The notes under the pieces were generated by a model that was not told the DNA's origin, made no database searches, and worked only from the letters and a program-made list of their open reading frames with translations. Below are positions 23,371 to 48,291 of a DNA stretch of 64,000 nt, one piece after another; position 1 is the stretch's first letter; each line of letters opens with the position of its first letter. The stretch comes from Aquificaceae bacterium (lineage in GTDB: Bacteria > Aquificota > Aquificia > Aquificales > Aquificaceae), in the NCBI GenBank assembly GCA_037925075.1, contig JAXSNR010000001.1:704001-768000 (forward strand), given 5' to 3'. A program made the translations under genes and the position numbers.

Positions 23371-23763
23371 ATGCTTGAGCTAAGAAGTCTTCCAAAGGTT
23401 GCCAACGAGCTTTTCAATGCTCTGCACGAGGATGAACTACAGCTGATAAATGAACTATACTTAGCCTGTGAAAAGGAAGATCTCGCAGAGGCAGACAGGT
23501 TAATGGATCTGCTCCTATACGATGTGGAGGAGCATTTTTCTACGGAGGAGGAGCTTATGAAGGAGGCGGACTTCTTTGCCTATCCTATGCACAAGGCGGA
23601 GCACGACACTATGAGAGGAGACCTAAAAGCCCTATACAGCAACTGGAAAACATCAAAGGATACACCCATGGTAATGGACTTCATAAAGGATAAGCTTATT
23701 CCGTGGCTTTTGCTACATATATCCCGTTGGGATTCAGTGACCGCCATGCATATAGGAAGCTAA
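23371..23763 (+). CDS. Bacteriohemerythrin
   Basis: H..EHFSTEEELM..YPMHKAEH..WLLLHI..D di-iron ligands; start reassigned to ATG 23371 after AGGAGG. Confidence 0.88.
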   Translation: MLELRSLPKVANELFNALHEDELQLINELYLACEKEDLAEADRLMDLLLYDVEEHFSTEEELMKEADFFAYPMHKAEHDTMRGDLKALYSNWKTSKDTPMVMDFIKDKLIPWLLLHISRWDSVTAMHIGS

Positions 23764-24219
23764 AAAGCCAAACCATAGCACATTGCTGGCAAGATGGAGA
23801 AGGCTCACCAAGGCTAAGGATCCAGTCCTTTGGTACGCATAGCCATAAAAAAGGGAAGGGAAAAAGGTAAGCACCGACCAAAGGTCTGTATAAAGCACCA
23901 CATGGGGCAATGTAAAAAGCACTGAAACCACAAGGTTTGAAAACCTTTGCATAAGGTAGGCTCTAAAAAAAAGCTCTTCCGCAAAAGCCTGAAGGGCCAA
24001 GCTGGCAAAGTCTTTGGGATACAAAAGGTACAAAGGGGGCAAAAGAAGAAGGCTCAAGTTCCATACACTTTTTAGCCCAAGCTTCTCCGACGGTAAGAAA
24101 ACAAGAGGAAGCAAAAGCACAATTATGCCAAGGTTGGGCAAGCCAAAGAGTCTATGAAATAGGATATTAAAGAGAAAAAGTCCATAAAGTAAGAGCTCAG
24201 TATATCCTTTTATAGACAA
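23734..24219 (-). CDS. CPBP (type II CAAX) glutamic intramembrane protease, myxosortase/JDVT-CTERM-sortase-like
   Basis: EELFFR, LFTLPH, TFFPSLFYG, LLHLASN motifs; last gene of the gspE-L-M-K operon. Confidence 0.85.
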   Translation of the reverse strand: MSIKGYTELLLYGLFLFNILFHRLFGLPNLGIIVLLLPLVFLPSEKLGLKSVWNLSLLLLPPLYLLYPKDFASLALQAFAEELFFRAYLMQRFSNLVVSVLFTLPHVVLYTDLWSVLTFFPSLFYGYAYQRTGSLALVSLLHLASNVLWFGFLASYMHGGH

Positions 24220-25045
24220 TTTTCCCCTCCTGTCTGTCGTATATTGCGGAAAAGCTTATGCTGTAGCCTCCGCTTTTTAGGTCCATCACAAGGTGGAAGA
24301 ACCTGCTTTTGGTGTCTATGTAGTTTTTCATCTTGTAAAGCATATCAAAGGTAAAGCCCTCCACAAGCACAAGGTCATCGGGCCTTTTGAAGGGCTCCTT
24401 TGCCCTCCTCTCTATTATCTTACTTGCGAGGGTTTGGTCTATGCGGGGGTCAAGTGCCATAAGCACAGGCATGGGTGCGGTGTTTATATTTACCTTGCCC
24501 GAAGAGAAGGTGGTGGTAAGGCTCCAAAGCCCGGGGTAAAAGTCTTTTCCTATGGTCTTGCCTTGTAGGTCTTCTGGCTTAAAGCCCACATAAAGGAGCT
24601 CTTCCTTTGAGTTAAGGGGTGCCCTCTTTATGGGATAAGGGCTATCAAAGGCACCATCCTTTTTGCCTATCCAGGTCAAAAGCCTATCAAGGTACTGGGA
24701 GTCAATCCTTAGGTAGGAAAAAAGGTGTTTAAAAAGCTCCTGATGTTCTCCTGCGGTGTTTAGGTTTATGTATCGGTCCTCGTCGTATATGGTGATGGTG
24801 AGCTCTCCCTTTTCGGTTTTAAAGCTCAGTGGGTATGCCCACCTTTCCTGAAGGTGGTCCACAGAGGGGTCGTCAGGCCTTATTATTTCTATGGCAAGGG
24901 GGAGTGCGGACCTGAAAACATAGAGGGCTTGGGTGCGTGCATAAACCTGTTGAACCGCCATCTGCGTACTTTTTACGCTTGCAAAAAGGTCCAAAACCAC
25001 AAGGCTGGCACTTATAAAGAGTATAAGGGCAAGGATTATGGTCAT
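24197..25045 (-). CDS. gspK: Type II secretion minor pseudopilin GspK
   Basis: N-terminal hydrophobic helix, DHL.E.WA, I.DE...INLN, KVNINTAP..VL.AL. Confidence 0.88.
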   Translation of the reverse strand: MTIILALILFISASLVVLDLFASVKSTQMAVQQVYARTQALYVFRSALPLAIEIIRPDDPSVDHLQERWAYPLSFKTEKGELTITIYDEDRYINLNTAGEHQELFKHLFSYLRIDSQYLDRLLTWIGKKDGAFDSPYPIKRAPLNSKEELLYVGFKPEDLQGKTIGKDFYPGLWSLTTTFSSGKVNINTAPMPVLMALDPRIDQTLASKIIERRAKEPFKRPDDLVLVEGFTFDMLYKMKNYIDTKSRFFHLVMDLKSGGYSISFSAIYDRQEGKIVYKRIY

Positions 25046-25434
25046 CTTATGGTCATTTCCACCTCATACAGCCCCTGTCCCGTGTTGTCCACGGATATGA
25101 ACTTTCTAATCTCAACGCCCGAACTTTCCAAAGAATATACAAGCTTTGGGAGGTTTTCGCCTCTTAGGTTTCTTGCCTTTACCTCATAGCCTACATCCAC
25201 CTGTTTAAAGGACACAAAGTCAGCCCCCACCTCTGATAGCTTTTGCCTTACAAAGCCCTCATCTATTGTAGCCTTCTGTCTTGTCTGATAGTTCTTTAAA
25301 AGTAGCATAACCTCCTTGTACCGTAGGTATTCCGCATAGTAGTTGTCCCTTAGCCTGTAGTAGTGGTCAAGAAGAAGGGCAAGGAGCAAAAAGGTCAGCA
25401 AGAAAAGTATAAGGTTTATCCTACTTGCACTCAT
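25042..25434 (-). CDS. gspM: Type II secretion protein GspM-like
   Basis: Single TM plus short ferredoxin-like periplasmic domain, located between gspL and gspK. Confidence 0.6.
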   Translation of the reverse strand: MSASRINLILFLLTFLLLALLLDHYYRLRDNYYAEYLRYKEVMLLLKNYQTRQKATIDEGFVRQKLSEVGADFVSFKQVDVGYEVKARNLRGENLPKLVYSLESSGVEIRKFISVDNTGQGLYEVEMTIR

Positions 25435-26588
25435 GGCGTTTTCAGTTCAAACTCCACCTTTCCTGTGGGTGTTTCCTTTGTGGAGAAGAGCTTTAGCCCT
25501 TCGAGGGTTTTTCTTTCAGCCTCCCCCTTTACGGTAAGCCTTCCCTCCGCGTACTCAATGCGGTAAAGCCTCATGCCGGGCTTTAGAGATTCTTGAGCCC
25601 TCAAAAGAAGCTTTGTAAGTTTGTACTCTTCACCGCTTGACACCTTTGCCCTAACCTGCTCATAAAGGGAGATTATGGGTTCTTTTGGGAAGTGCTTTTT
25701 GAACTCTGTCCTCTGTATGTCTCTGAGCTTTTCCACCGAGTAGAGCCTTTGCATGGCAAAGAAGCTAAGGAAAAAGGCGACCGCAACCCCTCCACCCACA
25801 TAGGCAAGCCTTTTCATCTCCTGAGGGCTTAGCTCCCTTTGGGCAAAGTCCGGGTAAGGGTTTTTTAGAACTTCCCTAAGGCACGTACCTAAGCATACCG
25901 CATACTCCGGCTCGCAATAGGTCAATTCCACAGCCTCTGGGAAAAGGCTTTTTAGGCCCCTCATCCTTGAGCCCCCGCCCGTAAGAAGCACCTTATGGTC
26001 TTCAAAGTTGTATCCCGAAAGCCCCAAAATCTCCTCAACCCCCTCTCTTATTTCCTTCGCACTTAGCCCTTCTGACCTCTTTAGCCTTTCCGCACTTTCA
26101 TAGTCCAAAGACCTACCTTCCGCCAACCTCTGGGTGAGATAGTTGCCACCCCTCAGGACAAGCCTAAAGGACCTCAAAAAGCCTTCCCTTATCTCCACAA
26201 AAACCGTCTTTCTCCTCCCCCAGTCTATCACAAAAAGCTCATCACCGTAAAGACTTCCAAGCCTTGCAAGGGCAAAGGGCTCAAGCTCCACCCCTTCGTA
26301 CTGCTCACATCCTCTGCACAGGGCAAGGTAGGCCCTACCTTGGGAAAGCTTGATGTCATACCTTGCGTCCGAAAACCTTTCCTTGACGTACTGCATAAGC
26401 TCTTTGGCCTTTGCCCTTTTACTCTCTTGTGCGTAAGCCTCCACCTTTATGAGGACCCTGTCGGAGGGAATGCATGTTATAAGCCTTCCAGTTTTTTGGG
26501 AGATTTTCCACTCTTTGGAGAGCAAGCTGTATTCAAGGCTTAGACTCTTTTCTCCATCCTTTGCACTTATAACCCTTTTAAGCCACAT
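25431..26588 (-). CDS. gspL: Type II secretion protein GspL (PilM-like actin fold, TM, periplasmic domain)
   Basis: IDWGRRKT, GG.YLT..LA, LLTGGGSR actin-like motifs, then TM; follows gspE. Confidence 0.75.
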   Translation of the reverse strand: MWLKRVISAKDGEKSLSLEYSLLSKEWKISQKTGRLITCIPSDRVLIKVEAYAQESKRAKAKELMQYVKERFSDARYDIKLSQGRAYLALCRGCEQYEGVELEPFALARLGSLYGDELFVIDWGRRKTVFVEIREGFLRSFRLVLRGGNYLTQRLAEGRSLDYESAERLKRSEGLSAKEIREGVEEILGLSGYNFEDHKVLLTGGGSRMRGLKSLFPEAVELTYCEPEYAVCLGTCLREVLKNPYPDFAQRELSPQEMKRLAYVGGGVAVAFFLSFFAMQRLYSVEKLRDIQRTEFKKHFPKEPIISLYEQVRAKVSSGEEYKLTKLLLRAQESLKPGMRLYRIEYAEGRLTVKGEAERKTLEGLKLFSTKETPTGKVEFELKTP

Positions 26589-28005
26589 TTTGGTCCTCTG
26601 TCTTTACCGCCCTTAGAAGCTCCTCCGAAGTGGTTATACCCGCAAGGACTTTCCTTATGCCATCTTCAAGCATGCTCTTAAAGCCCCTTGTCTTGGCAAA
26701 GTTCCTAAGCTCCACCGCATCCTGAGTCCTTAGTATGTACCTTTTTACCTCCTCATCCACTTCCAAAACCTCGTATATGCCAGTCCTTCCCCTGTAGCCA
26801 GTTCCCATGCAATGCTCACAGCCCCTGCCACGATAAAAGGTGTATTCACCAGAAAGGCCAAGCTCCGAAAGCTCTTCCTGTGTGGGCTTATAGGGTTCTT
26901 TACAATGCGAACATATTTTACGCACAAGCCTTTGGGCTATAATACCTTCAAGGGCTGAAGCAATAAGAAAGGGCTCTATCCCAAGGTCAAAAAGCCTTGT
27001 GATGGCGGAGGGTGCGTCGTTTGTATGCAAGGTGGAAAGCACCAAGTGTCCCGTCAGGGCGGATTGCACCGCTATCTGTGCGGTTTCTGAGTCCCTTATC
27101 TCCCCCACCATGATCACATCTGGGTCTTGTCTGAGGATGGCTCTGAGCCCTGTCGCAAAGGTAAGCCCCACCTTTGGGTTTACCTGTATCTGGCTTACGC
27201 CCTCTATCTGGTATTCTGGCGGGTCTTCTATGGTGATAATGTTTCTCTTTGGGCTTTTTATCTCAAGGATCATGGCATAAAGGGTGGTGCTTTTGCCCGC
27301 ACCGGTGGGTCCTGTGGCAAGCACAATGCCGTAGGGTTTTTGAGAAAGTCTTCTGAGCTTTGTAAGGTCTTCTTCCCAAAGGCCCAAGTCCTCAAGCCTT
27401 AGGATTTTTCCACCCTTTTCTAAAAGCCTGAGAACCACCCTTTCACCAAAGACGGTGGGCACCACCGAAACCCTTATGTCAAGGTGCCTTGTGCCTACCC
27501 TTACAGCTATCTTTCCATCTTGCGGGACCCTTCTTTCCGCCACATTGAGGTTTGAAAGTACCTTTATACGAGATACCACCTGCTCATGCAAGGAAAGGGG
27601 TATGCGCGTGTATTCGTGAAGGATTCCGTCAAGCCTTATCCTTACCAAAGCCTGCCCTTCGTAGGGCTCTATATGTATATCAGACGCCCCCACATTTACC
27701 GCCTTAATAAGCACCTGATTTACAAAGCTTACTGCCGGGCTTGTCTCTTCCTCATAGAGGATATCCTTTATTTCCGAAGACTCTCCCTCTTCTCCTTCAA
27801 TCTGCACCTCCTCCTGAGCCAAAGCTTCCTGTAGCCTTTGGGCAAAATCCTCCTCTGGCACAAAAACGGGTATGACCTCCTTTCCAAGAGAAAAGCGAAG
27901 CTCTTCAAGGACGGATGGGTCCAAACCCTTTGGTGCCAATACCTTCAAAAAGTCTTCTCCCTCTTCAAGGGGCACAAGCCTGTATTCTTTTAGCACCTTA
28001 GCCAT
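26578..28005 (-). CDS. gspE: Type II secretion ATPase GspE
   Basis: ASDIHIEP, PQDG, GPTGAGKST, LRQDPD, TLHTN, CxxC..CxxC. Confidence 0.93.
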   Translation of the reverse strand: MAKVLKEYRLVPLEEGEDFLKVLAPKGLDPSVLEELRFSLGKEVIPVFVPEEDFAQRLQEALAQEEVQIEGEEGESSEIKDILYEEETSPAVSFVNQVLIKAVNVGASDIHIEPYEGQALVRIRLDGILHEYTRIPLSLHEQVVSRIKVLSNLNVAERRVPQDGKIAVRVGTRHLDIRVSVVPTVFGERVVLRLLEKGGKILRLEDLGLWEEDLTKLRRLSQKPYGIVLATGPTGAGKSTTLYAMILEIKSPKRNIITIEDPPEYQIEGVSQIQVNPKVGLTFATGLRAILRQDPDVIMVGEIRDSETAQIAVQSALTGHLVLSTLHTNDAPSAITRLFDLGIEPFLIASALEGIIAQRLVRKICSHCKEPYKPTQEELSELGLSGEYTFYRGRGCEHCMGTGYRGRTGIYEVLEVDEEVKRYILRTQDAVELRNFAKTRGFKSMLEDGIRKVLAGITTSEELLRAVKTEDQNVA

Positions 28006-28028: not shown

Positions 28029-29900
28029 ATGTGGCTTATAGTACTCTTTCTTCTTGGCATTGCCTTTTCTGGGGAGGTAAAGGTCCTCTACGAAGATGGC
28101 AGGGTAGGTGTAGTTTCCGAAAAAGCCCTCAAAAGCCTCAAGTCTCGGGTTTTGTATGTGGAAAAGCCAAAAAGGCTGTGGCTCAAGGATGAGATACTCA
28201 GAAGCTCCGCCGTAGGTGTATGGGTCAGTGGTCAGTATAAGGCTTCTCTTCCCGTAAGTGCAGGACAGAGAATAGGGTTTTCTTCCATAAACACCCAGCT
28301 AAGCTTTTCTGGTCCATGCACCCAGTCTGGAAGTCTCTTGGTATGTACCTCCGATGGAACTCTGAACATAACCGCCAGCTCCTCCAACGGAAATTTTGCC
28401 CTGTGGAGCGAGACCCATGCCCTTAGCCTTCTTCCAAATGCTTACTGGCTTGGCACATCCGCAAGGCTTTCGGGGGGAACTGGGAGTGGTGTGCTTGTCG
28501 CCGTGGTGGACTCGGGCATAGACCTTTGCCATCCTGAGTTTGAGGACAGGATAGTGCTTTTTTATGATGCGGTCACGGGTCAGGAGTTTGACCAAAACAC
28601 CATAAGACAGAAAAGACAAAACGGGGACTGTGATTATGACTATGTAGGACACGGCACCGCTGTGGCAAGCGTGCTGGCTGGCAGAAACGGAATAGCACCC
28701 GATGCAAGCATGGTGGTGGTGAGGGTAGCAGACCCCTCGGGTGTTATTTATGATACAACGCTTATACGAGCCTTACAATATCTTAAAAACAAGCAATCAC
28801 AGCTTGGAAGGCCCATGGTGGTAAACCTTTCCCTTGGAAACACCCTTGGGCCGGCGGACGGCACGTACCTTCTTGACCTTGCCATAGACCAGCTATCGGG
28901 CAGTGGTTTTGTGGTGGTGGTTGCCAACGGCAACGAGGGAGACCTTCCCATAAGGGCGGTCATTGAAAATGCAAGTTCTGTAAGCATTCCTGTAAGTCTT
29001 ACCAGTGATCTTCCCTTTGAGCTTTGGTACGGAGGAAACTCCTCCTACAGGGTGGAGCTTTGCGACAGTCAAAACCGATGCGCGGTATCACAAAAGGACT
29101 CGCAGGTAAGCGGAAATCTTCCATGCGTGAGCTATGTGGAACACAGAAGCTACCCCCTGAACGGAAAGGTTTATGCAAGCTTTGACCACAGCTGTGGTGG
29201 TAGCTACACCCTTAGGCTTTCCCTTGCCTCTGGCTCACCATCAAGGGTGGACCTCTTTGGGGGCTTTGAGGGCAACTCCTTTGGTGCCTATACAGTGCCA
29301 GACGGACAAGGGGGATATCTCTACACGGTAGGCCAGCCAGCAACCGCAAGAAGGACAATAGGGGTAGGGGCTATAAATTTAAGGTCCTCTAACGGTCTTG
29401 GTATGCTTGCCTTTTTCTCCTCACGCGGTCCAACCGCTGACGGCAGGACAAAGCCAGAGATAGTGGTAGGGGGTGCATGGGTTTATGTGGCCACCGAAGG
29501 TGGAGGCTATGATTACAAACGAGGCACCTCCATTTCCTCACCCGCGGTCGCGGGCCTTGTAGCCCTTATGCTCCAAGCCAACCCATCCCTTACACCAGAA
29601 CAGGCTAAGGAGCTTCTCTGTCAAAACGCCCTAAAGGACGGTGCTGTTGGTAGCACACCCAACAACCTCTACGGCTGTGGAAAAGCCCATGCGGTAGCCC
29701 TAAGTGCCAATAATCCGCCACCCACAGAAAACTCAACCAACCCACCACCCACTATAAACCTGCCACCACCCACAGAAAGCCCCTCCTCAGGTGGTGGTGG
29801 TGGTTGCAGTACAGGCTCATCCACCTATCTGTGGTCTTATGCCCTTTTTGTAGTGCTTTTACTTCTTAGGAGGTTCAAGGGCAAGCTTGACCGCATGTAA
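28029..29900 (+). CDS. Secreted S8 subtilase with Pro-rich linker and GGGGGC-TM-basic C-terminal sorting signal
   Basis: Signal peptide; VDSG / GHGT / GTSISSP triad; FSSRGPTADGRTKPE; ends SSGGGGGCSTGSSTYLWSYALFVVLLLLRRFKGKLDRM. Confidence 0.9.
   Translation: MWLIVLFLLGIAFSGEVKVLYEDGRVGVVSEKALKSLKSRVLYVEKPKRLWLKDEILRSSAVGVWVSGQYKASLPVSAGQRIGFSSINTQLSFSGPCTQSGSLLVCTSDGTLNITASSSNGNFALWSETHALSLLPNAYWLGTSARLSGGTGSGVLVAVVDSGIDLCHPEFEDRIVLFYDAVTGQEFDQNTIRQKRQNGDCDYDYVGHGTAVASVLAGRNGIAPDASMVVVRVADPSGVIYDTTLIRALQYLKNKQSQLGRPMVVNLSLGNTLGPADGTYLLDLAIDQLSGSGFVVVVANGNEGDLPIRAVIENASSVSIPVSLTSDLPFELWYGGNSSYRVELCDSQNRCAVSQKDSQVSGNLPCVSYVEHRSYPLNGKVYASFDHSCGGSYTLRLSLASGSPSRVDLFGGFEGNSFGAYTVPDGQGGYLYTVGQPATARRTIGVGAINLRSSNGLGMLAFFSSRGPTADGRTKPEIVVGGAWVYVATEGGGYDYKRGTSISSPAVAGLVALMLQANPSLTPEQAKELLCQNALKDGAVGSTPNNLYGCGKAHAVALSANNPPPTENSTNPPPTINLPPPTESPSSGGGGGCSTGSSTYLWSYALFVVLLLLRRFKGKLDRM
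29712..29780 (+). repeat. Three imperfect (N/L)PPPT repeats forming a linker
   Basis: NPPPTE / NPPPTI / LPPPTE, encoded by recurring CCACCCAC. Confidence 0.7.
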
Positions 29901-30914: not shown

Positions 30915-30980
30915 AGCTTAAAGTATAAACCTTTTGGGGTTAAATAGCCACATACATAAAGAGAGGTAAAATAATGAAAC

Positions 30981-31508: not shown

Positions 31509-31854
31509 GGAAAAAGCACTGAAAAAAGACATAGAGACAGAGGCGATTTTGCGGATAAGAGAACACAGACTAAAAATATGGAAGTTGCTTTCTTTTGCCC
31601 TCCTTAGCCTTAACTTTTCCCTTATGACCTTTTTATTCGTGAACCTAACAAAAACTGAATACGAAACCATGTCCGGTGGTTACGAGGTGCATATACGGGA
31701 CGATGTTAGCTTTTCTCAGTTAGACCAGTTTTTGAGAAGACACAACCTATTTATAAAGGGACCTACACCGGAGGGCACATACCTTATAGAAGGTGCAAGC
31801 TCGGATACCATAAAAGCTATAGAAAAGTCAAACATCTTTAGACCAAAGGATTAA
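31480..31854 (+). CDS. Putative membrane anti-sigma factor
   Basis: Overlaps the ECF gene; short cytoplasmic part, one TM, then YETMS..GP..EG.Y.I periplasmic domain. Confidence 0.65.
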   Translation: MKRAIKEYYREKALKKDIETEAILRIREHRLKIWKLLSFALLSLNFSLMTFLFVNLTKTEYETMSGGYEVHIRDDVSFSQLDQFLRRHNLFIKGPTPEGTYLIEGASSDTIKAIEKSNIFRPKD

Positions 31855-33579: not shown

Positions 33580-33596
33580 TGTTATAATATAAACTT

Positions 33597-40236: not shown

Positions 40237-41956
40237 GGACTGCCATACCAAAAACAAAAAGCCAAGCCCATAGGTTGGAAGAAGCACCCGCATTACAACC
40301 ACCACCTCCACCGCTTTCAACGGGTGGGTTTAGGTTTTCAAGGATAACTATGGGGTCCTCTATAAATAGATCCGTGCTGTCAGCGTCGTAGATAGAGTTG
40401 TCGTATATCACAAAGGTTATGGTGGAGCCCAGTATGCTAACCTGGGATGTTATGTCGTAGATTTGATTTCCCACAAGTTTATAAACCCTGCTACCCGCGG
40501 GTATACGGGTTGGTAAAATCAACCTTACGGTGGCAAGGCGAGCTATATTAGCCACCTGAACCCTTATTCTAAAAGCAGGGTAGTTTATGGCATAGCCCGG
40601 TGGTGGGCTTACTGGCGGTTGAAAGCTCTCAAAGGCAAGTATGTTGGCGTCTGTTTGTAAAAGGATGCTACCTGCTGGTGAGGTTGTGCTGGAATAGTAT
40701 GGGAGTGGTGGTAGGTTGTCGGGTAGTGGTGGCGGTGGCTGGTTATCAGGTGGCGGCTGTTGGCTTTGAGATTGCTTGAACTTTGCGGTGCAGGTTTTGT
40801 CCGCGGCTATGTTTGTTAGTATGCATGTGGCGTTGGTGCAAGAAGAACAATCCCCAAGCCACCCGTCAAACTCATACCCAGAACTTGGATTGGCAGTAAG
40901 GCTAACATCTGCCCCATGCTCGTATTCTCCATCGCCTGATACGGTACCCGAGCCCGAGGGTTGGACGCCAACGGATACATTGTAAAGTGCCTCAAAGGCT
41001 CCTGCGTCGCATTTTTTGTTGTTTTTGTTCCTGTCTTTGCCCCTTTGGTCTTTGGTGATATCAACTACTAATATGTCCGTGCAATCTGTCACGGAGTTTA
41101 TAGCAACAGAAGATGAGTTTAGTTTGTAAACTCTTGTGCTTCCTCCATGATAGTCAAGCGTATCAAGGGCTAATTCCTGCTGTGTCTTTTGGGTAAAGCC
41201 CGTACATCCCCCTATACTTGTGCTATAAAGCACGCCAAAGCCTTGCACCGTGCCAGCACAAAGATTGCCCGTGTGGTCAAAGATGGAGTTTTTGACTTGC
41301 AAGGTGCCACCAGCTTGTGCCAAAGCGTCTGCGGAGTTCCCGCTTGCGGTGATAAAGGCTATTCGTGTTATCCCTGCGTTGTTATAGACTATACTGCCTG
41401 CGGGTGCGGTGTTGTTGGCAAAGGTGCAGTTGGTTATCTCCACAGTTCCCCCGTTGTTGTAGATGGTGCCGTTGCCTGTAGCGTTGTTGTAACCTATAAA
41501 GGAGTTTGAAATTTTGAGGGTCCGCCCTGAGCCAACCGCAACCACCGAGCCGTTGGTCGTACTACGCCCATTGATAAGGTTTAAGTTCCTTATCTCCAAA
41601 GTGCCACTGCCTGTTAGTGTAAAGAGCTGAACCGTATTATTCCCACTTATACTGACCCTTACACCAGAGCCATCAATGGTGAGATTGCCACCCGTAAAAT
41701 CGACTGACAAAGAAGATGAGAGCGTGATAACCTGCCCGTTTAGGCTTTGTGCAAAATTGATAGTATCATTTCCAAGAGTCCCTTGCACTTGACATTCTGT
41801 ATAGGTTGAAATACTGTTAGTGTTGGCGATTTTCAAAGCTTCCCTTAAATTGCATTTACCATCGCCGGGATTATCACTGTCCCCCGCATCATCAACGGTG
41901 ATGGTCGCAGAAAAGCTTATGGCTATCAAGCTTAGTAAGACAAGTAAGTATATCAT
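40211..41956 (-). CDS. CSLREA-domain adhesin-like protein with GGGGGC-TM-basic C-terminal sorting signal
   Basis: Signal peptide (start 41956 after GGAGG), CNLREA, beta-helix-like repeats, DQRG..R..CD.GAFE, GYEFDGW.GDC repeat domain, Pro linker, ends SGGGGGCNAGASSNLWAWLFVFGMAVLRKLRTLS. Confidence 0.85.
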   Translation of the reverse strand: MIYLLVLLSLIAISFSATITVDDAGDSDNPGDGKCNLREALKIANTNSISTYTECQVQGTLGNDTINFAQSLNGQVITLSSSLSVDFTGGNLTIDGSGVRVSISGNNTVQLFTLTGSGTLEIRNLNLINGRSTTNGSVVAVGSGRTLKISNSFIGYNNATGNGTIYNNGGTVEITNCTFANNTAPAGSIVYNNAGITRIAFITASGNSADALAQAGGTLQVKNSIFDHTGNLCAGTVQGFGVLYSTSIGGCTGFTQKTQQELALDTLDYHGGSTRVYKLNSSSVAINSVTDCTDILVVDITKDQRGKDRNKNNKKCDAGAFEALYNVSVGVQPSGSGTVSGDGEYEHGADVSLTANPSSGYEFDGWLGDCSSCTNATCILTNIAADKTCTAKFKQSQSQQPPPDNQPPPPLPDNLPPLPYYSSTTSPAGSILLQTDANILAFESFQPPVSPPPGYAINYPAFRIRVQVANIARLATVRLILPTRIPAGSRVYKLVGNQIYDITSQVSILGSTITFVIYDNSIYDADSTDLFIEDPIVILENLNPPVESGGGGGCNAGASSNLWAWLFVFGMAVLRKLRTLS

Positions 41957-41975
41957 AGTTGTCACCTCCCTTTCT

Positions 41976-42647
41976 TTATCTGCATTGGTCTTGTTCTCCG
42001 TAGTCCGCAAGTCTTATAGCAAGGCTGTATTTTATGGTTTTTTTCTTGCCAGAGTATATTTCCACCACATCAAACTCAAAGTTTGCCAAGGCATTGCAGA
42101 TGCTGGGGTATGAAGCTCTTTGAAGGAGTGTTGGACACCCATCTTGGTTTATGTATATGTAATTTATTATTTCCGTGATTGCTATTTTCATATCTTGTGT
42201 TATGGGCTGTATGGTCACGGTGGAATCGCCAGTAGGCTGTAAAACCGCACCTACGGGAAATTCATATATGCCGGGTATACAACCTGTAAAGCTAACCTTG
42301 TACTTTTCCACAAGGACTGGGGAGGGAAGTTCCACCACCGGCTCTCCTTTGACGTTTTTTAGAGGCTCAACATTAAAGGTAATATCCACGTTTTCTGCTC
42401 TGTATACCGCGCCAATACAAACATCGTTTGCGACTGCAATAGCGTTGCAACCTGTGGAAGGAGCAGAGAGGACTGGTGCCTGTACTGGTGTATGGATAAC
42501 CACATCGCTTTCCAGTGGGTTTGGTTGTGCGTTGGCTATAACCACCGTCACCGTGTCAAAGGTTGGGGTATAGTCGGACAGTCCTGTGCCACCGCAAGAA
42601 AAGGCACCTAAAACTATGGGCATGCTCGCAACCGCAAGCTTTTTCAT
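41976..42647 (-). CDS. Hypothetical lipoprotein
   Basis: AAGGAGG SD, lipobox GAFS-CGG. Confidence 0.78.
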   Translation of the reverse strand: MKKLAVASMPIVLGAFSCGGTGLSDYTPTFDTVTVVIANAQPNPLESDVVIHTPVQAPVLSAPSTGCNAIAVANDVCIGAVYRAENVDITFNVEPLKNVKGEPVVELPSPVLVEKYKVSFTGCIPGIYEFPVGAVLQPTGDSTVTIQPITQDMKIAITEIINYIYINQDGCPTLLQRASYPSICNALANFEFDVVEIYSGKKKTIKYSLAIRLADYGEQDQCR

Positions 42648-42680
42648 TTTTCCCTCCTTTTGCTATTATATGATTATAAT

Positions 42681-43766
42681 ATGTCACCTCAAGCTCTAAG
42701 CAAGGTCAAATATGGCAGTTTCCTAAAAGGCAATCTACTAAAAGGTAGGGTAGACCAGTACGAGCTTTCTCTGGTTTTGGTTGAGCTTTCTACCCTTATG
42801 GCTTCTGGGCTTTCCTTGATAAACGCCCTTAGGTTGATAAAAGACCAGACCTCCAACAGGGCTATAAAGGACGGCTTAGATAAGGTAATGCAGGAGATAG
42901 AGAAAGGCAGAAGCCTATACAGAGCCTTTTCTGAGGCTGGCATCTTTCCAGAGTTTTTTATTGAGATGTTAAGAACCGCAGAAAGCGGAGAAAACCTTAA
43001 ACAGGTGCTAAAAATAGCAGGCCAGTATCTTCAAAAAACAGTGGAAGCAAGAGCCAAGTTTTTTACAGCAATCGCCTATCCGATTTTTGTAATATTTGCA
43101 AGCCTCTTGGCAGTCCTTGTGGTGGTCAAGGTGGTGGTGCCAAAGATTGCCGGCGTCCTCGAAAGCCTTGGGAAAGAATTACCCCTTATAACAAAAGCCC
43201 TTGTGCTTTTTTCTGTTTTTCTTTCCTATTTTGTGTATCTTATCCCAATCCTTGCGGTGCTATATGTTTTCAGGCACAGGTTCATAAAAAAAGAGTTTTG
43301 GGATAGGTATATGCTTGGTGTCCCCATTCTTGGGAGGCTTTCCCTCTATTACAACCTTTCTCGTTTTGCAAGCAGTCTTTACATGTCCCTTTCTTCCAAC
43401 ATCCCCATTACAAGAGCCATAGCACTTAGCTTGGGTAGTATATCCAACGTCTATCTTAGGGCTTCTCTAATTGGTGTGGAGCAAGAGGTGGCAAAGGGAA
43501 AGAGCCTTAGCCTTGCCTTGAGGGAAAGGAGGGTGCTTCCTGAGACCTTTCTTAACCTTCTTGCCATGGGAGAGCGTAGCGGTGAGTTGGAAAAGAGCCT
43601 TATGATGATTTCTGAGCTTTATGAACGTCAGGCGGAGAGGGTGATTTCCTTTTGGCTTAGGTTTGCGGAGCCTTTGGCTATGCTTGTGGTGGGTGCCTTG
43701 GTGGCTGTGGTAGTCCTTAGCGTGGTTTTGCCCCTTTCCGAGATATCCGCGGGCGTAAGAAGATAG
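42681..43766 (+). CDS. gspF: Type II secretion inner-membrane platform protein GspF
   Basis: L.TL..SGL.L..AL, G.SL..A, ESG.L, AI.YP, GE.SGEL, EP; start ATG 42681 preferred. Confidence 0.9.
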   Translation: MSPQALSKVKYGSFLKGNLLKGRVDQYELSLVLVELSTLMASGLSLINALRLIKDQTSNRAIKDGLDKVMQEIEKGRSLYRAFSEAGIFPEFFIEMLRTAESGENLKQVLKIAGQYLQKTVEARAKFFTAIAYPIFVIFASLLAVLVVVKVVVPKIAGVLESLGKELPLITKALVLFSVFLSYFVYLIPILAVLYVFRHRFIKKEFWDRYMLGVPILGRLSLYYNLSRFASSLYMSLSSNIPITRAIALSLGSISNVYLRASLIGVEQEVAKGKSLSLALRERRVLPETFLNLLAMGERSGELEKSLMMISELYERQAERVISFWLRFAEPLAMLVVGALVAVVVLSVVLPLSEISAGVRR

Positions 43767-43781
43767 CCTTATAATTTTTCC

Positions 43782-44183
43782 ATGAGACAAAAAGGTTTTA
43801 CACTGATAGAGCTTTTGGTGGTTATCATCATCCTTGGCATCCTTGCGGCCATTGTGGTTCCCCGTATAACGGGCAGGGTGGATGAGGCAAAGGTAGAAGC
43901 CACAAGGGTACAGCTAAAAGCCGTAAAGGACGCCCTTGAACAGTACAAGCTGGACAACGGCTTTTATCCCACCACGGAGCAAGGGCTTAGGGCTCTTGTG
44001 GAAAAGCCCGCCACACCACCAAACCCCACAAGGTGGAGGCAGTACTTGGACAAGGTGCCAAAGGACTCATGGGACAGAGAGCTTATATACATGTCTCCGG
44101 GTATTGGAAGGCCCTTTGAGCTTAGGTCTATGGGTCCAGACGGTAAAGAGGGCACAGAGGACGACATAGATGTTTGGAAATAA
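43782..44183 (+). CDS. gspG: Major pseudopilin GspG
   Basis: KG/FTLIELLVV, YKLDNG.YPTTEQGL.AL, PKD.W, S.GPDG.EGTEDDI. Confidence 0.96.
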   Translation: MRQKGFTLIELLVVIIILGILAAIVVPRITGRVDEAKVEATRVQLKAVKDALEQYKLDNGFYPTTEQGLRALVEKPATPPNPTRWRQYLDKVPKDSWDRELIYMSPGIGRPFELRSMGPDGKEGTEDDIDVWK

Positions 44184-44454
44184 GGGCTTTACACTTCTTG
44201 AGCTTATGGTTGCCATAGTGGTGCTTGCGGTGGGCTTTTCTGTGGTTTTTGAGGTCCTATCAAAGGCAAGGCTTGATTACGCACAGGCTAACAGCCTTGA
44301 AAGGGATATGATAGAGCTTAACAAGGCCCTTTTGGAGGGAAAAACGGAGGACCTCCTGTCTCAGGCAAGAACCCTTGAAGACTACCCACAGGTGGAGGAG
44401 GTCTCATACAGGCTTGGCTCTGCGGAGTTTTTCCTGTATGGGCTTAAAAAATGA
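44170..44454 (+). CDS. gspI: Minor pseudopilin, GspI-like
   Basis: KG/FTLLELMVA prepilin site, short protein, follows gspG. Confidence 0.7.
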   Translation: MFGNKGFTLLELMVAIVVLAVGFSVVFEVLSKARLDYAQANSLERDMIELNKALLEGKTEDLLSQARTLEDYPQVEEVSYRLGSAEFFLYGLKK

Positions 44455-44933
44455 AAAGGGGCTTTACCCTTCTTGAGGTGCTTCTTGTGGTGGCCCTTAT
44501 GGGCGTGTTCTTTGGGGTGCTTTCTTATGGCTTTTACTCCTCTGTGAGAAACTCCTACCTCCTTATGGAGTCTGCGGAGGCAACAAGGGAAGAGGTAATG
44601 CTCTTTTGGAACCTTCAGAGAAAGCTAACCGGTGCCCAAGACCTTTATCTCAAAAGGGATGCCCTTTTTATGACCACCACCGCAGGGGACTACTACCAAG
44701 GGGTTGTAAAGTGTGCCTATCTGTACAAGGATGGCTGGCTTTACTACTATGAGTTCCCGTACCCTTACGGAGACATAACCTTTTACGAAGAGGACAAGCT
44801 TATAAGGCTTGGAAGGTTCAAAGAGCTGTCCTTTAGGGCCTTTGCGGGAGGGCAGTTTTTGGAGGAATTCAGGGGCAAGCCCAATTGGGTGGAGATAAAA
44901 GGTGAAGGAAGGGTCCTTATGGTAGCCCCTTAG
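44451..44933 (+). CDS. gspJ: Minor pseudopilin, GspJ-like
   Basis: RG/FTLLEVLLV prepilin site, position in operon. Confidence 0.7.
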   Translation: MKRGFTLLEVLLVVALMGVFFGVLSYGFYSSVRNSYLLMESAEATREEVMLFWNLQRKLTGAQDLYLKRDALFMTTTAGDYYQGVVKCAYLYKDGWLYYYEFPYPYGDITFYEEDKLIRLGRFKELSFRAFAGGQFLEEFRGKPNWVEIKGEGRVLMVAP

Positions 44934-44949
44934 GTTATAATATTATCAA

Positions 44950-45696
44950 ATGCGGATTTTCTACCCTCTATACTTGTTTTCCCTTGCTTTGCTTATGCTT
45001 GCGTATGTTTCCTTTGTAAGTAGCAGGGTGGAGGTACCTCAGCTTGTGAGGGAAGAGGTTCAAACCCAAAGCCTTTTTGCAAAGTTTGAAGGTTTGTATC
45101 CAAAGCAAGTAAAAGAGGAGGAAAAGGTGCCCACCGTAAGCCTGATCGCAACCGCCACTGGCTACGTCCCTCTTGCCCTTGCGGAGGTGGACGGACAGAC
45201 AAAAACCCTCAGAATTGGTTCTCAGGTGGGTGGCTACAAGGTGGCTTCCATAGAAAGAAACTATATATTGCTTTCAAAGGGTGAAAAGAAGCTTGCGGTG
45301 GGCTTTACCTTTGGTCCAAAACCCACTCCACAGCAAACCTCTTCTCAGGGAGCTTCTTTGCCGCAGGCAAGCAGAAGCCTTCAAGCAAGCCTTCCAAAGG
45401 GAGAGTTAGAACGCATAACCTCAGACCCCGGGATCATGTTTAGGATGATAAGGCTTGTGCCCTTTGTGCAAGAAGGAAGAACCAAAGGCTTCCTCTTTGA
45501 GTGGGTGGAGCCGGGTAGTATTTTTGAAAGGGCTGGCATAAAGGTTGGGGATGTTTTGCTTTCTATAAACAACCAAGAGATAAAAAGTGGTGAGGACGCC
45601 TTTAGGATCTTACAGGTGCTTAGAAACGAAAACAGTATAAAATTGAACCTACAAAGAGGAAATGAGATTTTAGAACTTTCTTTGAGGGTGGAATGA
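44950..45696 (+). CDS. gspC: Type II secretion protein GspC with PDZ domain
   Basis: TM, HR-like domain, PDZ (GI..GD....IN). Confidence 0.85.
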   Translation: MRIFYPLYLFSLALLMLAYVSFVSSRVEVPQLVREEVQTQSLFAKFEGLYPKQVKEEEKVPTVSLIATATGYVPLALAEVDGQTKTLRIGSQVGGYKVASIERNYILLSKGEKKLAVGFTFGPKPTPQQTSSQGASLPQASRSLQASLPKGELERITSDPGIMFRMIRLVPFVQEGRTKGFLFEWVEPGSIFERAGIKVGDVLLSINNQEIKSGEDAFRILQVLRNENSIKLNLQRGNEILELSLRVE

Positions 45697-47660
45697 TGAA
45701 AAGGTTTGTGGTTTTCCTTGTGCTTTTTTTGGTGCTTGCACCCGTTGGTCATACTCAGACCGCGGAAGAGCTTCAAAGACAAGCTCAGGAACAAAAAAGA
45801 GCCGGAAAGGTCTTTCTCAACTTTCAGAACGCGGACATATCCTTGGTGGTCAAGTTTATGTCGGAGCTAACTGGCAAAAATATAATCCTTGACCCAAACG
45901 TAAAGGGAACCATTACCATAAGCTCCGCAAAGCCTGTTAGCCTAAGTCAGGCATGGGAGCTTTTTGTCATGTCTCTTACCCTTCAGGGCTATGGAGTGGT
46001 GGAAGAGAAAAACTTTGTGCGCATAGTACCCATAGCACAGGCTGTGCCCCTTGCGGAGCCAAGAAGGCCCTCCACTGGAGCGGACATAATCATATACCTC
46101 TATGGTGCGGAAAACACACAGGCAAGCCAGCTTCAGCAAGCCATTCAGCCCTTCCTTTCCCCCTTTGCAAAGGTGAGCATACACGCACAGTCCAACACTC
46201 TCATAATAGCGGACATAGCAAGGAACATAGAAAAGATAAAGGGCATAATAAAGGAGCTTGACTCTCCACAGAAGACCCTTAAGATAAAGCTCTACCCCCT
46301 CCAGAGGGCAAAGGCGGAAAACGTGCTTCAGAGTGTGCAGGCGGTTGTAAGCACCCTACAGCAACAGATAGGTATTCCGGGTGTAGCTACCATAAGCAAG
46401 GATGCCAACGCAATTATTGTGGTCGCCCGCGAGGATGTGCATGCTTTGGTTGAAGAGGTTATAAAAACCATAGACCAATCCACTCAGATTACAGAAGACA
46501 GGAGCTTTTATGTCCTACCTCTTAAGTTTATCTCCGCGGAGGAACTTCAAAAAAGCCTTCAGAGCCTTCTCTCTGGAGTAAGCCCGGTTATCACACAGCC
46601 CACCCCACCAACCCAACCGCAAGAGATAAGAGGTCTTGAGACACCCCTCAGAAAGGAGCCCACAGCTCAGCCCAAACAACCCCAGCCCATACCTGCCATA
46701 CAGACGAAGGAAGGCATGCGTATAGGCTTTGATAGAGGCACAAACTCCTTGCTTATATACGCAACTCCTCAGGAGTTTGAAGGACTAAAGGCTCTTGTGG
46801 AAAGGCTTGATGTGCGTAGAAGGCAGGTGCTTATTGCAGCCTCCGTGGTGGAGATGTCCACGAGCAAAGCCTTTGAGCTTGGAGTAAGATGGCAGGCCAT
46901 AGGCTCCAAGGGTGGTGCAGGCTTTGGTGTGGGAAGTGTTCAGGACCTGTACAGCTCCATACTAACTGGCAACTTTGTGCTTGGTTTTATAAACAACGTG
47001 GGAAGAACCATCACCATAGGTGGAGCGACCCTTTTCTTCCCAGACCTTGTGCTTCTTTTATCTCTTCTTGAGAAGGGCACCGGCTTTAATCTCATCTCAA
47101 ACCCAAAGGTGCTTACCCTTGACAACCAACCCGCGGAGATAAAGGTGGGTCAGGTGGTACCCTTTGCCTCTGGTGTAAAGTTTGACATAAACGGACAGCC
47201 CGTTATAACCTACGACTACAAGGAGGTGGGGCTTGACCTCAAGATTACACCCACCATAGCGGAAAACAACCTAAGGCTTATGATAGGCTTGCAGGTGCAG
47301 GAGATTGTGGATTTTATAAGGCCTCAGGTGGGACAGCTAAGCTATGCGGTGCCAGTGACCTCCAACAGACAGGTAAATTCAGATGTGGTGGTAGAAAACG
47401 GTCAGACCATAATCATTGGCGGGCTTGTTAGCACAAGAAGTATAAGCACTCAGGAGGGAGTGCCGGGTCTTAAGGATGTTCCCCTTTTTGGAAGGCTTTT
47501 CAGAAGGGATACCCAGACGGAAGATAAGGTTTCTCTGTTTATATTTATAACGCCCTATGTGGTAGAAAGCCCAGAAGAGCTTAGTAAGATAACCCAAGAA
47601 CATCAAAAGTTGGCGGAGGAGCTTAAAAAACTTATGGAAAAGCAGAAGAAGAATGAATAA
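45693..47660 (+). CDS. gspD: Type II secretion secretin GspD
   Basis: LNF.NADI, N.I.DP.VKG, LD.RR.QV.I, P..LTLDN..A.I.VG, VP.L..PL.G.LF. Confidence 0.95.
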   Translation: MMKRFVVFLVLFLVLAPVGHTQTAEELQRQAQEQKRAGKVFLNFQNADISLVVKFMSELTGKNIILDPNVKGTITISSAKPVSLSQAWELFVMSLTLQGYGVVEEKNFVRIVPIAQAVPLAEPRRPSTGADIIIYLYGAENTQASQLQQAIQPFLSPFAKVSIHAQSNTLIIADIARNIEKIKGIIKELDSPQKTLKIKLYPLQRAKAENVLQSVQAVVSTLQQQIGIPGVATISKDANAIIVVAREDVHALVEEVIKTIDQSTQITEDRSFYVLPLKFISAEELQKSLQSLLSGVSPVITQPTPPTQPQEIRGLETPLRKEPTAQPKQPQPIPAIQTKEGMRIGFDRGTNSLLIYATPQEFEGLKALVERLDVRRRQVLIAASVVEMSTSKAFELGVRWQAIGSKGGAGFGVGSVQDLYSSILTGNFVLGFINNVGRTITIGGATLFFPDLVLLLSLLEKGTGFNLISNPKVLTLDNQPAEIKVGQVVPFASGVKFDINGQPVITYDYKEVGLDLKITPTIAENNLRLMIGLQVQEIVDFIRPQVGQLSYAVPVTSNRQVNSDVVVENGQTIIIGGLVSTRSISTQEGVPGLKDVPLFGRLFRRDTQTEDKVSLFIFITPYVVESPEELSKITQEHQKLAEELKKLMEKQKKNE

Positions 47661-48291
47661 GGTAAGCCTTAGGTCAATTTTTATAAACTTGATTTTCCTT
47701 TTCCTTTTGCTGGTCCTTTTGGTGCTTTTAACTTTTCCAAAATTTCTTCTGCTTGAAAGAGAGCTTGCAAAGGCTGGGCTATACCTTACCGCAAGGGAAG
47801 TCAAAGAAGATATTAGGGGTATTACTCTAAAAGAGGTGAACCTTTACGATAAAAGTTCAAAGCTTGCCCGCTTTGACAGTCTTAGGATTGACCTTAGACC
47901 CTTTGGTGTGGGCATATCAGCCCTTTGTGAGGGCAAAGGTTTTTGGTTAGATTGGTCTATTACTTCAAAAAGGCTAAAAGCTCAAGACTTCACCTGCTTT
48001 TCTGTTGCTGAAAGTATAAGTGCAGATCTGGTCATAAAAGAGGGTTTATATGGCAAGATGTGGCTAAAGGGTATAAGGGTTCAGGATACAAAGGTGGAAG
48101 AGCTGTCCCTTGAGATGAAGGGAAGGGTCTTTACCGCAAAAGCTAAGGTTATGGGTTTTGAACTTGTTGGAGATGGGCAGGTGGTTTTTAACCCTTCTAA
48201 TTTCTTAGAGTCAAAGATAAACGGCAGGCTTTCTGGCGGTATGAACCTTACCATCTCCGGCACATTAGAAAAGATACAGCTTACAAGGTAG
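47653..48291 (+). CDS. gspN: GspN-like protein
   Basis: TM ending in TFP, beta-rich body, C-terminal L.ISGTL; follows gspD. Confidence 0.55.
   Translation: MNKVSLRSIFINLIFLFLLLVLLVLLTFPKFLLLERELAKAGLYLTAREVKEDIRGITLKEVNLYDKSSKLARFDSLRIDLRPFGVGISALCEGKGFWLDWSITSKRLKAQDFTCFSVAESISADLVIKEGLYGKMWLKGIRVQDTKVEELSLEMKGRVFTAKAKVMGFELVGDGQVVFNPSNFLESKINGRLSGGMNLTISGTLEKIQLTR

Follow-up and report, generated by a model that had tools for sequence, protein, structure and literature searches.

The window analysed here comprises the 64,000 nucleotides G000:C1:704001-768000 of a 1.6 Mb bacterial genome in four contigs, whose nearest named genomes are Aquificaceae metagenome-assembled genomes (MAGs; Candidatus Pampinifervens, Thermocrinis); hot-spring metagenome DNA runs contain the same DNA. 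A listing of open reading frames (ORFs) together with Pfam and NCBIfam scans bears out the split type II secretion system (T2SS) reported in a preliminary description of this DNA, with two divergent, outward-pointing operons flanking an island of 14.6 kb (28029-42647). The minus-strand operon reads gspE-L-M-K-CPBP, neighbouring genes overlapping, the last gene encoding a CPBP/Rce1-like glutamic intramembrane protease; the plus-strand operon (42660-48291) reads gspF-G-I-J/H-C-D-N, and the genes outside the T2SS block are housekeeping ones on both flanks. Within the island, an S8 subtilase and a choice-of-anchor protein share a C-terminal tag built around a glycine run and a cysteine, and the relation of this tag to the protease and to the T2SS is the main subject of the present work.

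The tagged subtilase (28029-29900, plus strand, 623 residues; PF00082, 155.4 bits) carries a signal peptide, a Pro/Thr/Ser linker, and the tail GGGGGCSTGSS followed by a transmembrane (TM) segment and RRFKGK, its tag being encoded at 29784-29897 with the cysteine 30 residues before the end. The tagged choice-of-anchor Q/U and InlB B-repeat protein (40211-41956, minus strand; NF041518 40.3, NF041766 39.3, and PF18998 62.3 bits), whose start is Met19 of the ORF 40211-42010, is likewise provided with a signal peptide and a Pro/Thr/Ser linker, and ends in GGGGGCNAGAS, a TM segment and RKLR, with the tag at 40214-40321 and the cysteine 27 residues before the end. Both window tails can be written as GGGGGC(S/N)(T/A)G, with a stretch of ~20 hydrophobic residues before the final RRFKGK or RKLR. 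In the general design, a glycine run leads to an invariant cysteine and a polar spacer, after which comes a TM segment, the very end of the protein being a cluster of Arg/Lys residues. Upon alignment of 21 tails (2 from the window and 19 from 19 related genomes), the glycine run spans 3-7 residues and the Ser/Thr/Gly/Asn spacer 6-10, the G, G, and C positions are invariant, and the arginine after the TM segment is nearly so. Two flavours are apparent, CSTGSxxY(L/A)WxY and CSMGxGASxxNxLLWLLxP, the latter with a proline in the helix.

A GGC triplet within the last 50 residues is found in 39 stop-to-stop ORFs of the window genome, and the full tail design in 3 of them, 2 being those of the island; to judge from these sequences, the tail is no chance feature. 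The tag carriers of the 19 related genomes distribute as 11 S8 proteases, 3 DUF7948/SBBP proteins, 3 InlB-repeat proteins, and 2 proteins without a family match, and the presence of the same tail on unrelated protein families is the hallmark of a sorting signal. The choice-of-anchor domains of one carrier and the marginal matches of the tails to MYXO-CTERM models point the same way. Counts were obtained with a 21-sequence profile hidden Markov model (HMM) at E≤0.01, which recognizes the window subtilase with E 4.9e-18 and the choice-of-anchor protein with E 6.7e-15. It replaced an earlier 4-sequence profile that under-scored true tags (E up to 0.23), and HMM profiles were preferred to a generic tail regular expression that caught 1 of the 3 tagged ORFs. 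The third of these (L013:7853-9718, equivalent to G000:C2:708852-710717) encodes a DUF7948/SBBP beta-propeller protein and contains an in-frame TAA (L013:8069-8071) that separates the signal peptide from the body; this probably marks a pseudogene or reflects an error in sequencing. This stop codon rules it out as intact, unlinked cargo on contig C2, so that both intact tagged genes of the window genome lie in the island.

The candidate sorting enzyme is the CPBP/Rce1-like protease of 161 residues (23734-24219, minus strand; PF02517, 47.4 bits against a cut-off of 22.4), whose gene closes the gspE-L-M-K operon and is the sole PF02517 gene of the window genome. The motifs EExxxR, FxxxH, and HxxxN (E81, E82, R86, F102, H106, H142, and N146), which we take to be the defining ones of CPBP/Rce1-like proteases, are invariant across 10 Aquificota homologs. 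Its AlphaFold2 model (pLDDT 92.2, pTM 0.87) superimposes on the archaeal Rce1 MmRce1 (4cad_C; Z 11.9, root-mean-square deviation 3.9, 152 of 161 residues aligned) and on SpdC (6u0o_A; Z 11.2), the next structure down having Z 4.3. Foldseek also placed 4cad and 6u0o as its top two, with weak E-values of 0.35-0.6. By its structural superposition, the model has the Rce1 fold. A sequence search of the PDB with the CPBP profile gave 0 matches at E≤1, and complex prediction for the protease with the tag returned a median of 0.25, the mark being 0.32.

Regarding the family to which the enzyme belongs, its seven best NCBIfam models are Mrt_core, MrtJ, MrtP, MrtS, MrtC, MrtZ, and MrtX. All 7 of these myxosortase models are matched by all 10 Aquificota homologs, the best E-value for a named model among them being 2.4e-21 for MrtS. 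In a control scan, all 12 Myxococcota ORFs from Myxococcota/Polyangia loci exceeded 100 bits with Mrt_core, and one Granulosicoccaceae protein passed the MrtJ cut-off. The Mrt_core maximum for other Aquificota ORFs (loci L056-L074, n=18) was 71.2 bits, 8 of these 18 lacking a match at the E≤1e-12 listing threshold. Since the seven Mrt models are the top matches of the window protein and all of them score under their cut-offs, the protease is placed, within the CPBP superfamily, close to the myxosortases and outside each of their named families.

The window genome holds the T2SS component set (GspD, GspE, GspF/L/M, GspC, pseudopilins, and prepilin peptidase), with L and M assigned by position. 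On the minus strand are encoded the secretion ATPase GspE (26578-28005; TIGR02533, 609.9 bits for a cut-off of 630.25; PF00437, 447.7 bits), a GspL-like inner-membrane platform protein (25431-26588) with weak FtsA/PilM-type (ATPase fold) matches and a position conserved in relatives, a 130-residue single-TM protein at the GspM position (25042-25434), and the minor pseudopilin GspK (24197-25045; PF03934 T2SSK; NF037980, 96.1 bits, under the cut-off of 130). The GspM-position protein, placed by its position and its conservation in the operons of relatives, matched no family in the Pfam and NCBIfam scans, relaxed thresholds included; relaxed scans likewise added nothing for the GspL- and GspN-position proteins. 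The plus strand encodes GspF (42660-43766; PF00482, 159 bits; TIGR02120, 236.3 bits, under the cut-off of 424), the major pseudopilin GspG (43782-44183; TIGR01710, 173.5 bits, cut-off 88.85), two minor pseudopilins with N_methyl motifs, GspC with a PDZ domain (44950-45696; TIGR01713, 82.8 bits, cut-off 101.6; PDZ_6), the GspD secretin (45693-47660; TIGR02517, 482 bits, cut-off 351.35), and a GspN-like protein (47653-48291; TIGR04411, 23.5 bits, cut-off 50). The first minor pseudopilin (44170-44454, 94 residues) is GspI-like, and the second (44451-44933, 160 residues) is of GspH/J type and scores GspH-like rather than GspJ, the GspH/I/J matches of the two being weak. Thus, the NCBIfam equivalog cut-offs are passed by GspD and GspG, while GspE, GspF, GspK, and GspC are best matches under cut-off. 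The prepilin peptidase is encoded away from the locus (C2:59201-59530), and GspD is the sole secretin of the window genome at E≤1e-60.

Distribution was then evaluated in 178 Aquificota genomes using the CPBP profile, the tag profile, and GspD at E≤1e-60. The CPBP profile matches 125 of the 178, the tag profile 85, and GspD 134, with 125 of these GspD proteins over the family cut-off. Tags were detected in 76 of the 113 genomes with both CPBP and GspD, in 1 of the 12 with CPBP only (a 57%-complete genome), in 6 of the 21 with GspD only (none of these six being more than 96% complete), and in 2 of the 32 with neither (G010, 54% complete, and G023, 99%); these fractions become 73/87, 1/12, 5/20, and 2/31 without the distant f5 family. 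Six CPBP-less genera, amounting to 25 genomes of which 12 have GspD, show 0 tags. In general, the system is found in most sampled Aquificaceae and Hydrogenothermaceae genomes. Considering that the genomes are related and that many of them are incomplete MAGs, the counts are given as the description of a pattern, to which no statistical test is attached. The genome G023, in 30 contigs, encodes on C8 (L142:7213-9888) a protein having both an N-terminal lipobox, SGC/GGGSSS, and a C-terminal GGGGGGC tag, as well as a Cys-GGG lipoprotein homolog (G023:C25:68600-69433). No CPBP, Rce1-like, or GspD match was found in it, and it may reflect an assembly gap or a real exception.

Gene neighbourhoods in relatives agree in part with the linkage of gsp genes, protease, and tagged proteins that the preliminary description had proposed to survey across Aquificota. 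The protease gene lies within ~6 kb of a tagged gene in six genera (g1, g3, g5, g15, g18, and g23), this part of the expectation being upheld; on the contrary, G006, G015, and G017 have their tagged genes away from the gsp genes. In 8 of the 10 best contig-search loci, all of them Aquificaceae-type, the protease gene follows gspK as the last one of the gsp operon. Within the genus of the window genome, a tagged-subtilase ortholog is divergent from gspE, as in the window, in G003, G011, and G019, and a 147-residue subtilase-like ORF takes its place in G009. In G006, G015, and G017, gspE-L-M-K-CPBP lies ~4 kb from gspD-N, with no island. A compact order is displayed by G095, from another genus, namely gspN-D-C, gspE-L-M-K-CPBP, tagged subtilase, SapC fragments, and gspG-I-J-F. 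Among Hydrogenothermaceae, the protease gene of G147 closes the gspG...K operon, and the gene of a tagged protein converges on it. In G143 a tagged subtilase adjoins gspM-L-E-D-N-K. The protease gene is back-to-back with a tagged subtilase in G034, G127, and G026, with no gsp gene within 10 kb in the first two. From these gene orders, the conserved core is formed by the T2SS, the protease, and the tagged subtilase, linked pairwise in various ways. Outside the phylum, the planctomycete loci L111 and L133 present giant tagged ORFs followed by CPBP and gsp genes, and L124 a CPBP gene among gsp genes.

Natural loss of the locus was also observed. The complete genomes G016 and G024 have the same flanks as the window (sigma factor, hemerythrin-like gene, and rluD), and the ~24 kb from gspK to gspN are gone from them, the loss starting inside the protease gene. 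These two genomes gave no GspD and no tag match, and neither the subtilase nor the third tagged protein has a homolog in them; G008 (99% complete) likewise lacks GspD, tag, and tagged-protein homologs. A 3' remnant of the protease gene persists in G016 and G024 (123-124 residues; L015:9850-10221 and L016:9819-10193), with an open frame covering all three catalytic motifs, and might still be expressed.

Taking together (i) the co-occurrence of protease, tag, and T2SS, (ii) their repeated adjacency, seen in six genera, (iii) the Rce1 fold of the protease model, (iv) its matches to myxosortases, and (v) the lack of tagged cargo in T2SS-less relatives, the link among the three elements, which the preliminary description had drawn from the window, is supported. 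We consider it probable that the CPBP protease cleaves the Gly-run-Cys tails of the subtilase and of the choice-of-anchor protein, and that the T2SS carries both to the cell surface, lipid-anchored through the cysteine. The system is likely an Aquificota version, previously uncatalogued, of the sorting that couples Cys-CTERM signals and myxosortases to a T2SS. The model is based on the analogy with MYXO-CTERM and MrtX of Myxococcus xanthus, as presented in the accessible text of PMC11980579. The signal peptides read from the sequence would direct export through Sec, and the TM helix of the tail would then hold the protein in the inner membrane, with its Arg/Lys cluster in the cytoplasm. The invariant cysteine would be lipidated there, possibly by the prolipoprotein diacylglyceryl transferase Lgt, which in the Myxococcus model is also the leading candidate for this step and is unproven there too (PMC11980579). 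As homology, fold, co-occurrence, and adjacency suggest, the 161-residue protease would subsequently cut just after the cysteine, and the T2SS, by its co-occurrence, would translocate the folded, lipid-tethered protein. Genes for Lgt and an S49 signal-peptide peptidase are located at 54447-56088 of the window, at a distance of 6 kb on the downstream side of the T2SS; the gene for Lgt is one of the housekeeping set, and this closeness may mean nothing.

Several observations weigh against this interpretation. The protease falls under every Mrt cut-off (Mrt_core 48.6 bits against 100, MrtX 27.7 against 180, MrtC 32.9 against 195, MrtP 37.6 against 250, MrtZ 29.7 against 325, MrtJ 41.1 against 75, and MrtS 37.6 against 130), and the MYXO-CTERM model TIGR03901 gives the tails 12.0 and 16.7 bits, its cut-off being 20. 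The other MYXO-CTERM model, TIGR03382, is matched marginally by one excised tail, at 15.9 bits for a cut-off of 15.85, the full-length protein not being listed. The names GspL, GspM, and GspN rest on position and weak matches. Among the 113 genomes with both CPBP and GspD, 37 show no tag at E≤0.01, and the f5 family has a distant CPBP homolog in 26 of 28 members and a tag in 4 of 28. Some Hydrogenothermaceae keep an intact CPBP without GspD or detectable tags, for instance G038 with two copies, and the enzyme may therefore have another substrate there. Conversely, G023 contains a tagged protein with no CPBP or GspD match at 99% completeness, and G117 (96%) has tags and GspD with no CPBP match. 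To these points are added the unlinked tagged genes of G006, G015, and G017 described above, and the fact that related genomes are not independent samples.

The remaining content of the island coincides with what had been listed for it, namely two tagged proteins, four lipoproteins, a second S8 protein, two glycosyltransferases, a Cys-rich protein, and an ECF module, all being present. The second S8-like protein (29859-30914, minus strand, 351 residues) has a weak PF00082 match (E 2.5e-4), its D/H/S motifs being seen in the sequence, and an ortholog 75% identical adjoins the tagged subtilase in G003. Its hydrophobic N-terminal segment is followed by a Pro/Gln linker, a six-Gly run, a second TM segment, and a Lys-rich stretch, the whole resembling an N-terminal copy of the tag without its cysteine, and its protease-like domain would face the cytoplasm. 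Next to it are an ECF sigma factor (30981-31508, plus strand; Sigma70_r2 and r4; TIGR02937, 112.5 bits) and, overlapping its gene, a 124-residue single-TM protein (31480-31854, plus strand) without Pfam or NCBIfam family match, which by position is a putative anti-sigma factor. Homologs of both are adjacent in G003, beside a gene similar to that of the 492-residue lipoprotein described below. A SapC-family Cys-rich protein (35543-36334, minus strand; PF07277, 90.6 bits) likely starts at Met66 of the ORF 35543-36529. Elsewhere, the most AT-rich part of the window (GC 0.39-0.42) has three DUF29 paralogs in tandem (18320-19790) behind an SbcC/SbcD pair.

The two glycosyltransferases are a GT9, heptosyltransferase-like enzyme (39100-40236, plus strand; PF01075, 36.7 bits) and a Maf-type (MptE-like) one, here Maf656 (33597-35567, plus strand), with PF01973 (106.2 bits) and PF20157 (86 bits) both over cut-off; it thereby shows the Maf_flag10_N and MptE-like domains of Maf flagellin glycosyltransferases. 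Maf656 is one of three genomic paralogs, the others being at C2:231876-233807 and C2:617927-619801. The former of these lies beside NeuB (C2:231058-231774) and flagellin (C2:233944-), and holds one in-frame TGA; SelB/SelA genes are present at 24-1654 of the window, and this paralog may therefore be either a selenoprotein or a pseudogene. When 5 genomes were queried, the best matches to Maf656 were 42-44% identical, that of G003 being on a contig other than that of its T2SS island, and G015 and G095 gave no match.

Four lipoproteins complete the island (lipobox cysteine before the slash): one of 492 residues with LVSC/GGGEQ (32101-33579, plus strand), recovered in a genome lipobox scan; a small one with MFAC/SQK (36331-36732, minus strand) starting at Met25 of the ORF 36331-36804; one of 736 residues (36779-38989, minus strand) with VASC/GGGGG and then a Thr/Pro linker; and lipo223, of 223 residues, with AFSC/GGTG (41976-42647, minus strand), directly upstream of the tagged choice-of-anchor protein. 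This last pairing recurs in G003 and G074. In some relatives (G003, G013 by coordinates, and genus g10), a second module, comprising a lipoprotein-type secretin (~700 residues, 300-310 bits to the GspD model, under cut-off) and a GspE-like ATPase (48-49% identical), lies beside a tagged protein and a Cys-GGG lipoprotein (L136:11366-13453 and L137:4346-7482 in G003; L146:7182-13013 in G074). The window genome has the lipoprotein and tagged-protein pair (41976-42647 and 40211-41956) without the second secretin and ATPase. The 736-residue protein contains 9.9% charged residues, the median for ORFs of at least 400 residues being 26.7%, and its gene lies between a sigma-70 promoter that fits the consensus at 12/12 positions and has an extended -10 TG (39050-39022), and a terminator-like hairpin of six all-G-C pairs plus a T run (36771-36756). 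This consensus promoter, the hairpin, and the very low charge point to a surface protein made in abundance. In the scan as a whole, promoter and terminator totals were no higher than in shuffled sequences (26 against 21.1 ± 4.8 and 31 against 25.2 ± 5.6, respectively). Among 24 genus members, a partial homolog of this lipoprotein was found in 1, with two very short matches besides, and its best score in the ESM atlas was 0.88.

According to the accessible text of PMC12802150, T2SS surface lipoproteins of Acinetobacter need GspN together with GGG or ND(N/D) right after the lipobox cysteine (P2'-P4'). In the island, GGG follows the cysteine in C/GGGEQ and C/GGGGGTAS, GG in C/GGTGLS, and no such motif in C/SQKAY. 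As 3 of the 4 lipoproteins thereby carry GGG or GG at the place where GGG is required in Acinetobacter (PMC12802150), export of the island lipoproteins by the T2SS gains indirect support; the three with such a glycine motif are likely to be additional lipid-anchored proteins that the T2SS exports with the participation of the GspN-like protein. A crude lipobox scan of the window genome returned 43 ORFs, 5 with Cys-GG, and the addition by eye of lipo223, missed by the pattern, makes 6, of which 3 lie in the 14.6-kb island. Island lipoproteins of relatives likewise carry a glycine motif after the lipobox cysteine. When three Cys-GGG lipoprotein queries were run against four GspD-less genomes and G015, two matched none and one matched G015 and G023 only. 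GspN is an AsmA-like family of the beta-taco type. The AlphaFold2 model of the GspN-like protein (pLDDT 85.4) opens with a TM helix at its N-terminus and continues as an all-beta meander, and the sequence has a YdbH-like match (E 0.0046) beside that to TIGR04411. Foldseek yielded nothing for this model at E≤0.001, and the best hits of a wide structural search (Z up to 7.2) were generic beta meanders and barrels. The nearest named atlas clusters belong to a Synergistales GspN family (score 0.93), which is taken as a lead only.

Three other explanations were confronted with these data. The whole 24.5-kb block might be one dedicated machine, with the Maf and GT9 enzymes glycosylating the cargo and the T2SS exporting it as a surface layer or matrix, which is close to the self-contained pathway of the preliminary description. 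Such an arrangement would account for the physical clustering of the genes, for the presence of Maf656 in addition to the paralog that adjoins NeuB and flagellin, for the Pro/Thr/Ser-rich linkers of the subtilase, the choice-of-anchor protein, and the 736-residue lipoprotein, and for the promoter, hairpin, and low charge that fit the last one being an abundant surface protein. It is nonetheless improbable, since the locus encodes the only T2SS of the genome, T2SS and protease occur without an island in G006, G015, and G017, and the promoter and terminator totals are no higher than those of shuffles. The words self-contained and dedicated are not supported, nor is a glycosylated surface layer, and the proposal that island enzymes modify the cargo loses ground with the paralogy of Maf656, its low identity to the matches in relatives, the lack of a match in G015 and G095, and the location of the G003 match off the T2SS contig. 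Because the glycosyltransferases are not conserved with the system and the 736-residue lipoprotein is nearly strain-specific, the island is better described as a variable hot spot than as a fixed machine; Maf656, GT9, SapC, the ECF pair, and the 736-residue lipoprotein look like variable passengers of this surface-protein hot spot.

The tails might instead be plain C-terminal membrane anchors, or substrates of some other enzyme, the role of the protease being unrelated and its place in the gsp operon a lineage habit. The missed Mrt cut-offs, the tagged genomes G023 and G117 without CPBP match, and the 12 GspD-less genomes that keep CPBP with a tag in just 1 would all fit, and yet we regard this explanation as rather unlikely. 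The six CPBP-less genera are free of tags in all 25 of their genomes though 12 of these have GspD, G034 and G127 have the protease gene beside a tagged subtilase and no T2SS gene nearer than 10 kb, unrelated families carry the same tail, and a simple anchor needs neither an invariant cysteine nor a glycine run. A further variant accepts cleavage by the protease and has the proteins going free as soluble T2SS exoproteins, that is, secreted proteases, with no surface lipid anchor. Subtilases are commonly free exoenzymes, and TraA, MXAN_4924, and VesB are partly shed in model systems, as reported in the accessible text of PMC11980579; the invariant cysteine and the mirror-image Cys-GGG motif in the same island would point instead to a lipid anchor, and we regard soluble release as very improbable. 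Cleavage of the tails by the CPBP protease, followed by T2SS-dependent display through a lipidated cysteine, is thus retained as the preferred interpretation.

Comparison with known systems, made on the accessible portions of the sources cited, helps to place this one. MrtX of M. xanthus is the sole member of its kind with experimentally proven cleavage (PMC11980579), and myxosortase-type sorting has been described in silico for a few further lineages (10.1101/2023.06.07.544157). The nearest described system is Synerg-CTERM/MrtS, with a divergent T2SS, from Synergistota (10.1101/2023.06.07.544157). Both present a Gly/Ser-rich cluster ending in a single invariant cysteine and a small CPBP enzyme (~160-170 residues), tag, protease, and T2SS cassette share their distribution in both, and the atlas lead for the GspN-like protein points in the same direction. 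On the contrary, the Aquificota tag has its 6-10-residue spacer between cysteine and TM segment, where Synerg-CTERM has none, and its own glycine run of 3-7; TIGR04564 gives the tails 6.8 bits for a cut-off of 22.5 and MrtS is missed as well, the phylum is another one, and the Aquificota protease gene ends gspE-L-M-K. With MYXO-CTERM/MrtX are shared the tripartite Cys tag and the Rce1-like glutamic intramembrane protease, T2SS-dependent display being shown in Myxococcus (PMC11980579) and predicted here, and the window tails match the MYXO-CTERM models marginally. MrtX is, however, longer (a 238-position profile with seven predicted TM helices) than the 161-residue enzyme, and Myxococcus has dozens of substrates and a GCGC motif instead of 2-3 substrates and GGGGGC.

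JDVT-CTERM/MrtJ of Pseudomonadota resembles the Aquificota system in that a small CPBP adjoins one or few substrates with a single tag cysteine (10.1101/2023.06.07.544157). Its nearly invariant Asp-Pro, located in the TM segment about nine residues past the cysteine, appears in 0 of the 21 aligned tails, in addition to the MrtJ score staying under cut-off. In the GlyGly-CTERM/rhombosortase system of Vibrio cholerae, a serine protease is also the main cargo, the C-terminal tag is tripartite as well, and VesB depends on the T2SS and remains at the cell surface (PMC11980579; 10.1101/2023.06.07.544157). Rhombosortase targets have domains in common with the window choice-of-anchor protein (TIGR04212 RbtA, E 8.8e-6; choice-of-anchor Q). 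Sorting is in that case the work of a rhomboid serine protease, and glycerophosphoethanolamine on the new C-terminus, rather than a cysteine side chain, provides the anchor. Finally, the GspN-dependent lipoproteins InvL and PulA (PMC12802150) have, as two of those of the island, a lipobox cysteine with GGG at P2'-P4', and a gspN-like gene closes the gsp operon; unlike in those systems, the GspN match is weak here, and the Aquificota glycine run is also found on the other side of a C-terminal cysteine.

The accessible text of the Haft preprint that defined the myxosortase family (10.1101/2023.06.07.544157) makes no mention of Aquificota, and no paper on such a system came up in literature searches that paired Aquificae or Aquificota with type II secretion, sorting signal, or CPBP. 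What appears to be new, going by sequence comparison, is an Aquificota form caught by no current NCBIfam model, with its own poly-Gly-Cys signature and a very small enzyme. The weight of the finding is limited because its mechanism is borrowed from a known system. Even so, the compact thermophile enzyme and its tag are offered for cleavage assays and structures, natural strains with and without the T2SS allow comparison in a phylum without genetics, and the Cys tags of C-termini are given a testable link to the GGG motif found in lipoproteins that a T2SS exports. The C-terminal tag mirrors the lipoprotein motif, with a glycine run and then a cysteine instead of a cysteine and then a glycine run. 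As a tentative and rather speculative extension, Aquificota may use one code of a lipidated cysteine beside a glycine run, lipobox-Cys-GGG at the N-terminus and GGGGG-Cys at the C-terminus, to mark proteins for T2SS/GspN-assisted surface display, the 160-residue myxosortase in the T2SS operon serving the C-terminal form. If this were true, lipid anchoring coupled to the T2SS would be an ancient route, common to the phylum, by which Aquificota thermophiles build their surface proteome, with subtilases first among its cargo, and strains losing the T2SS would lose their lipid-anchored surface proteome too.

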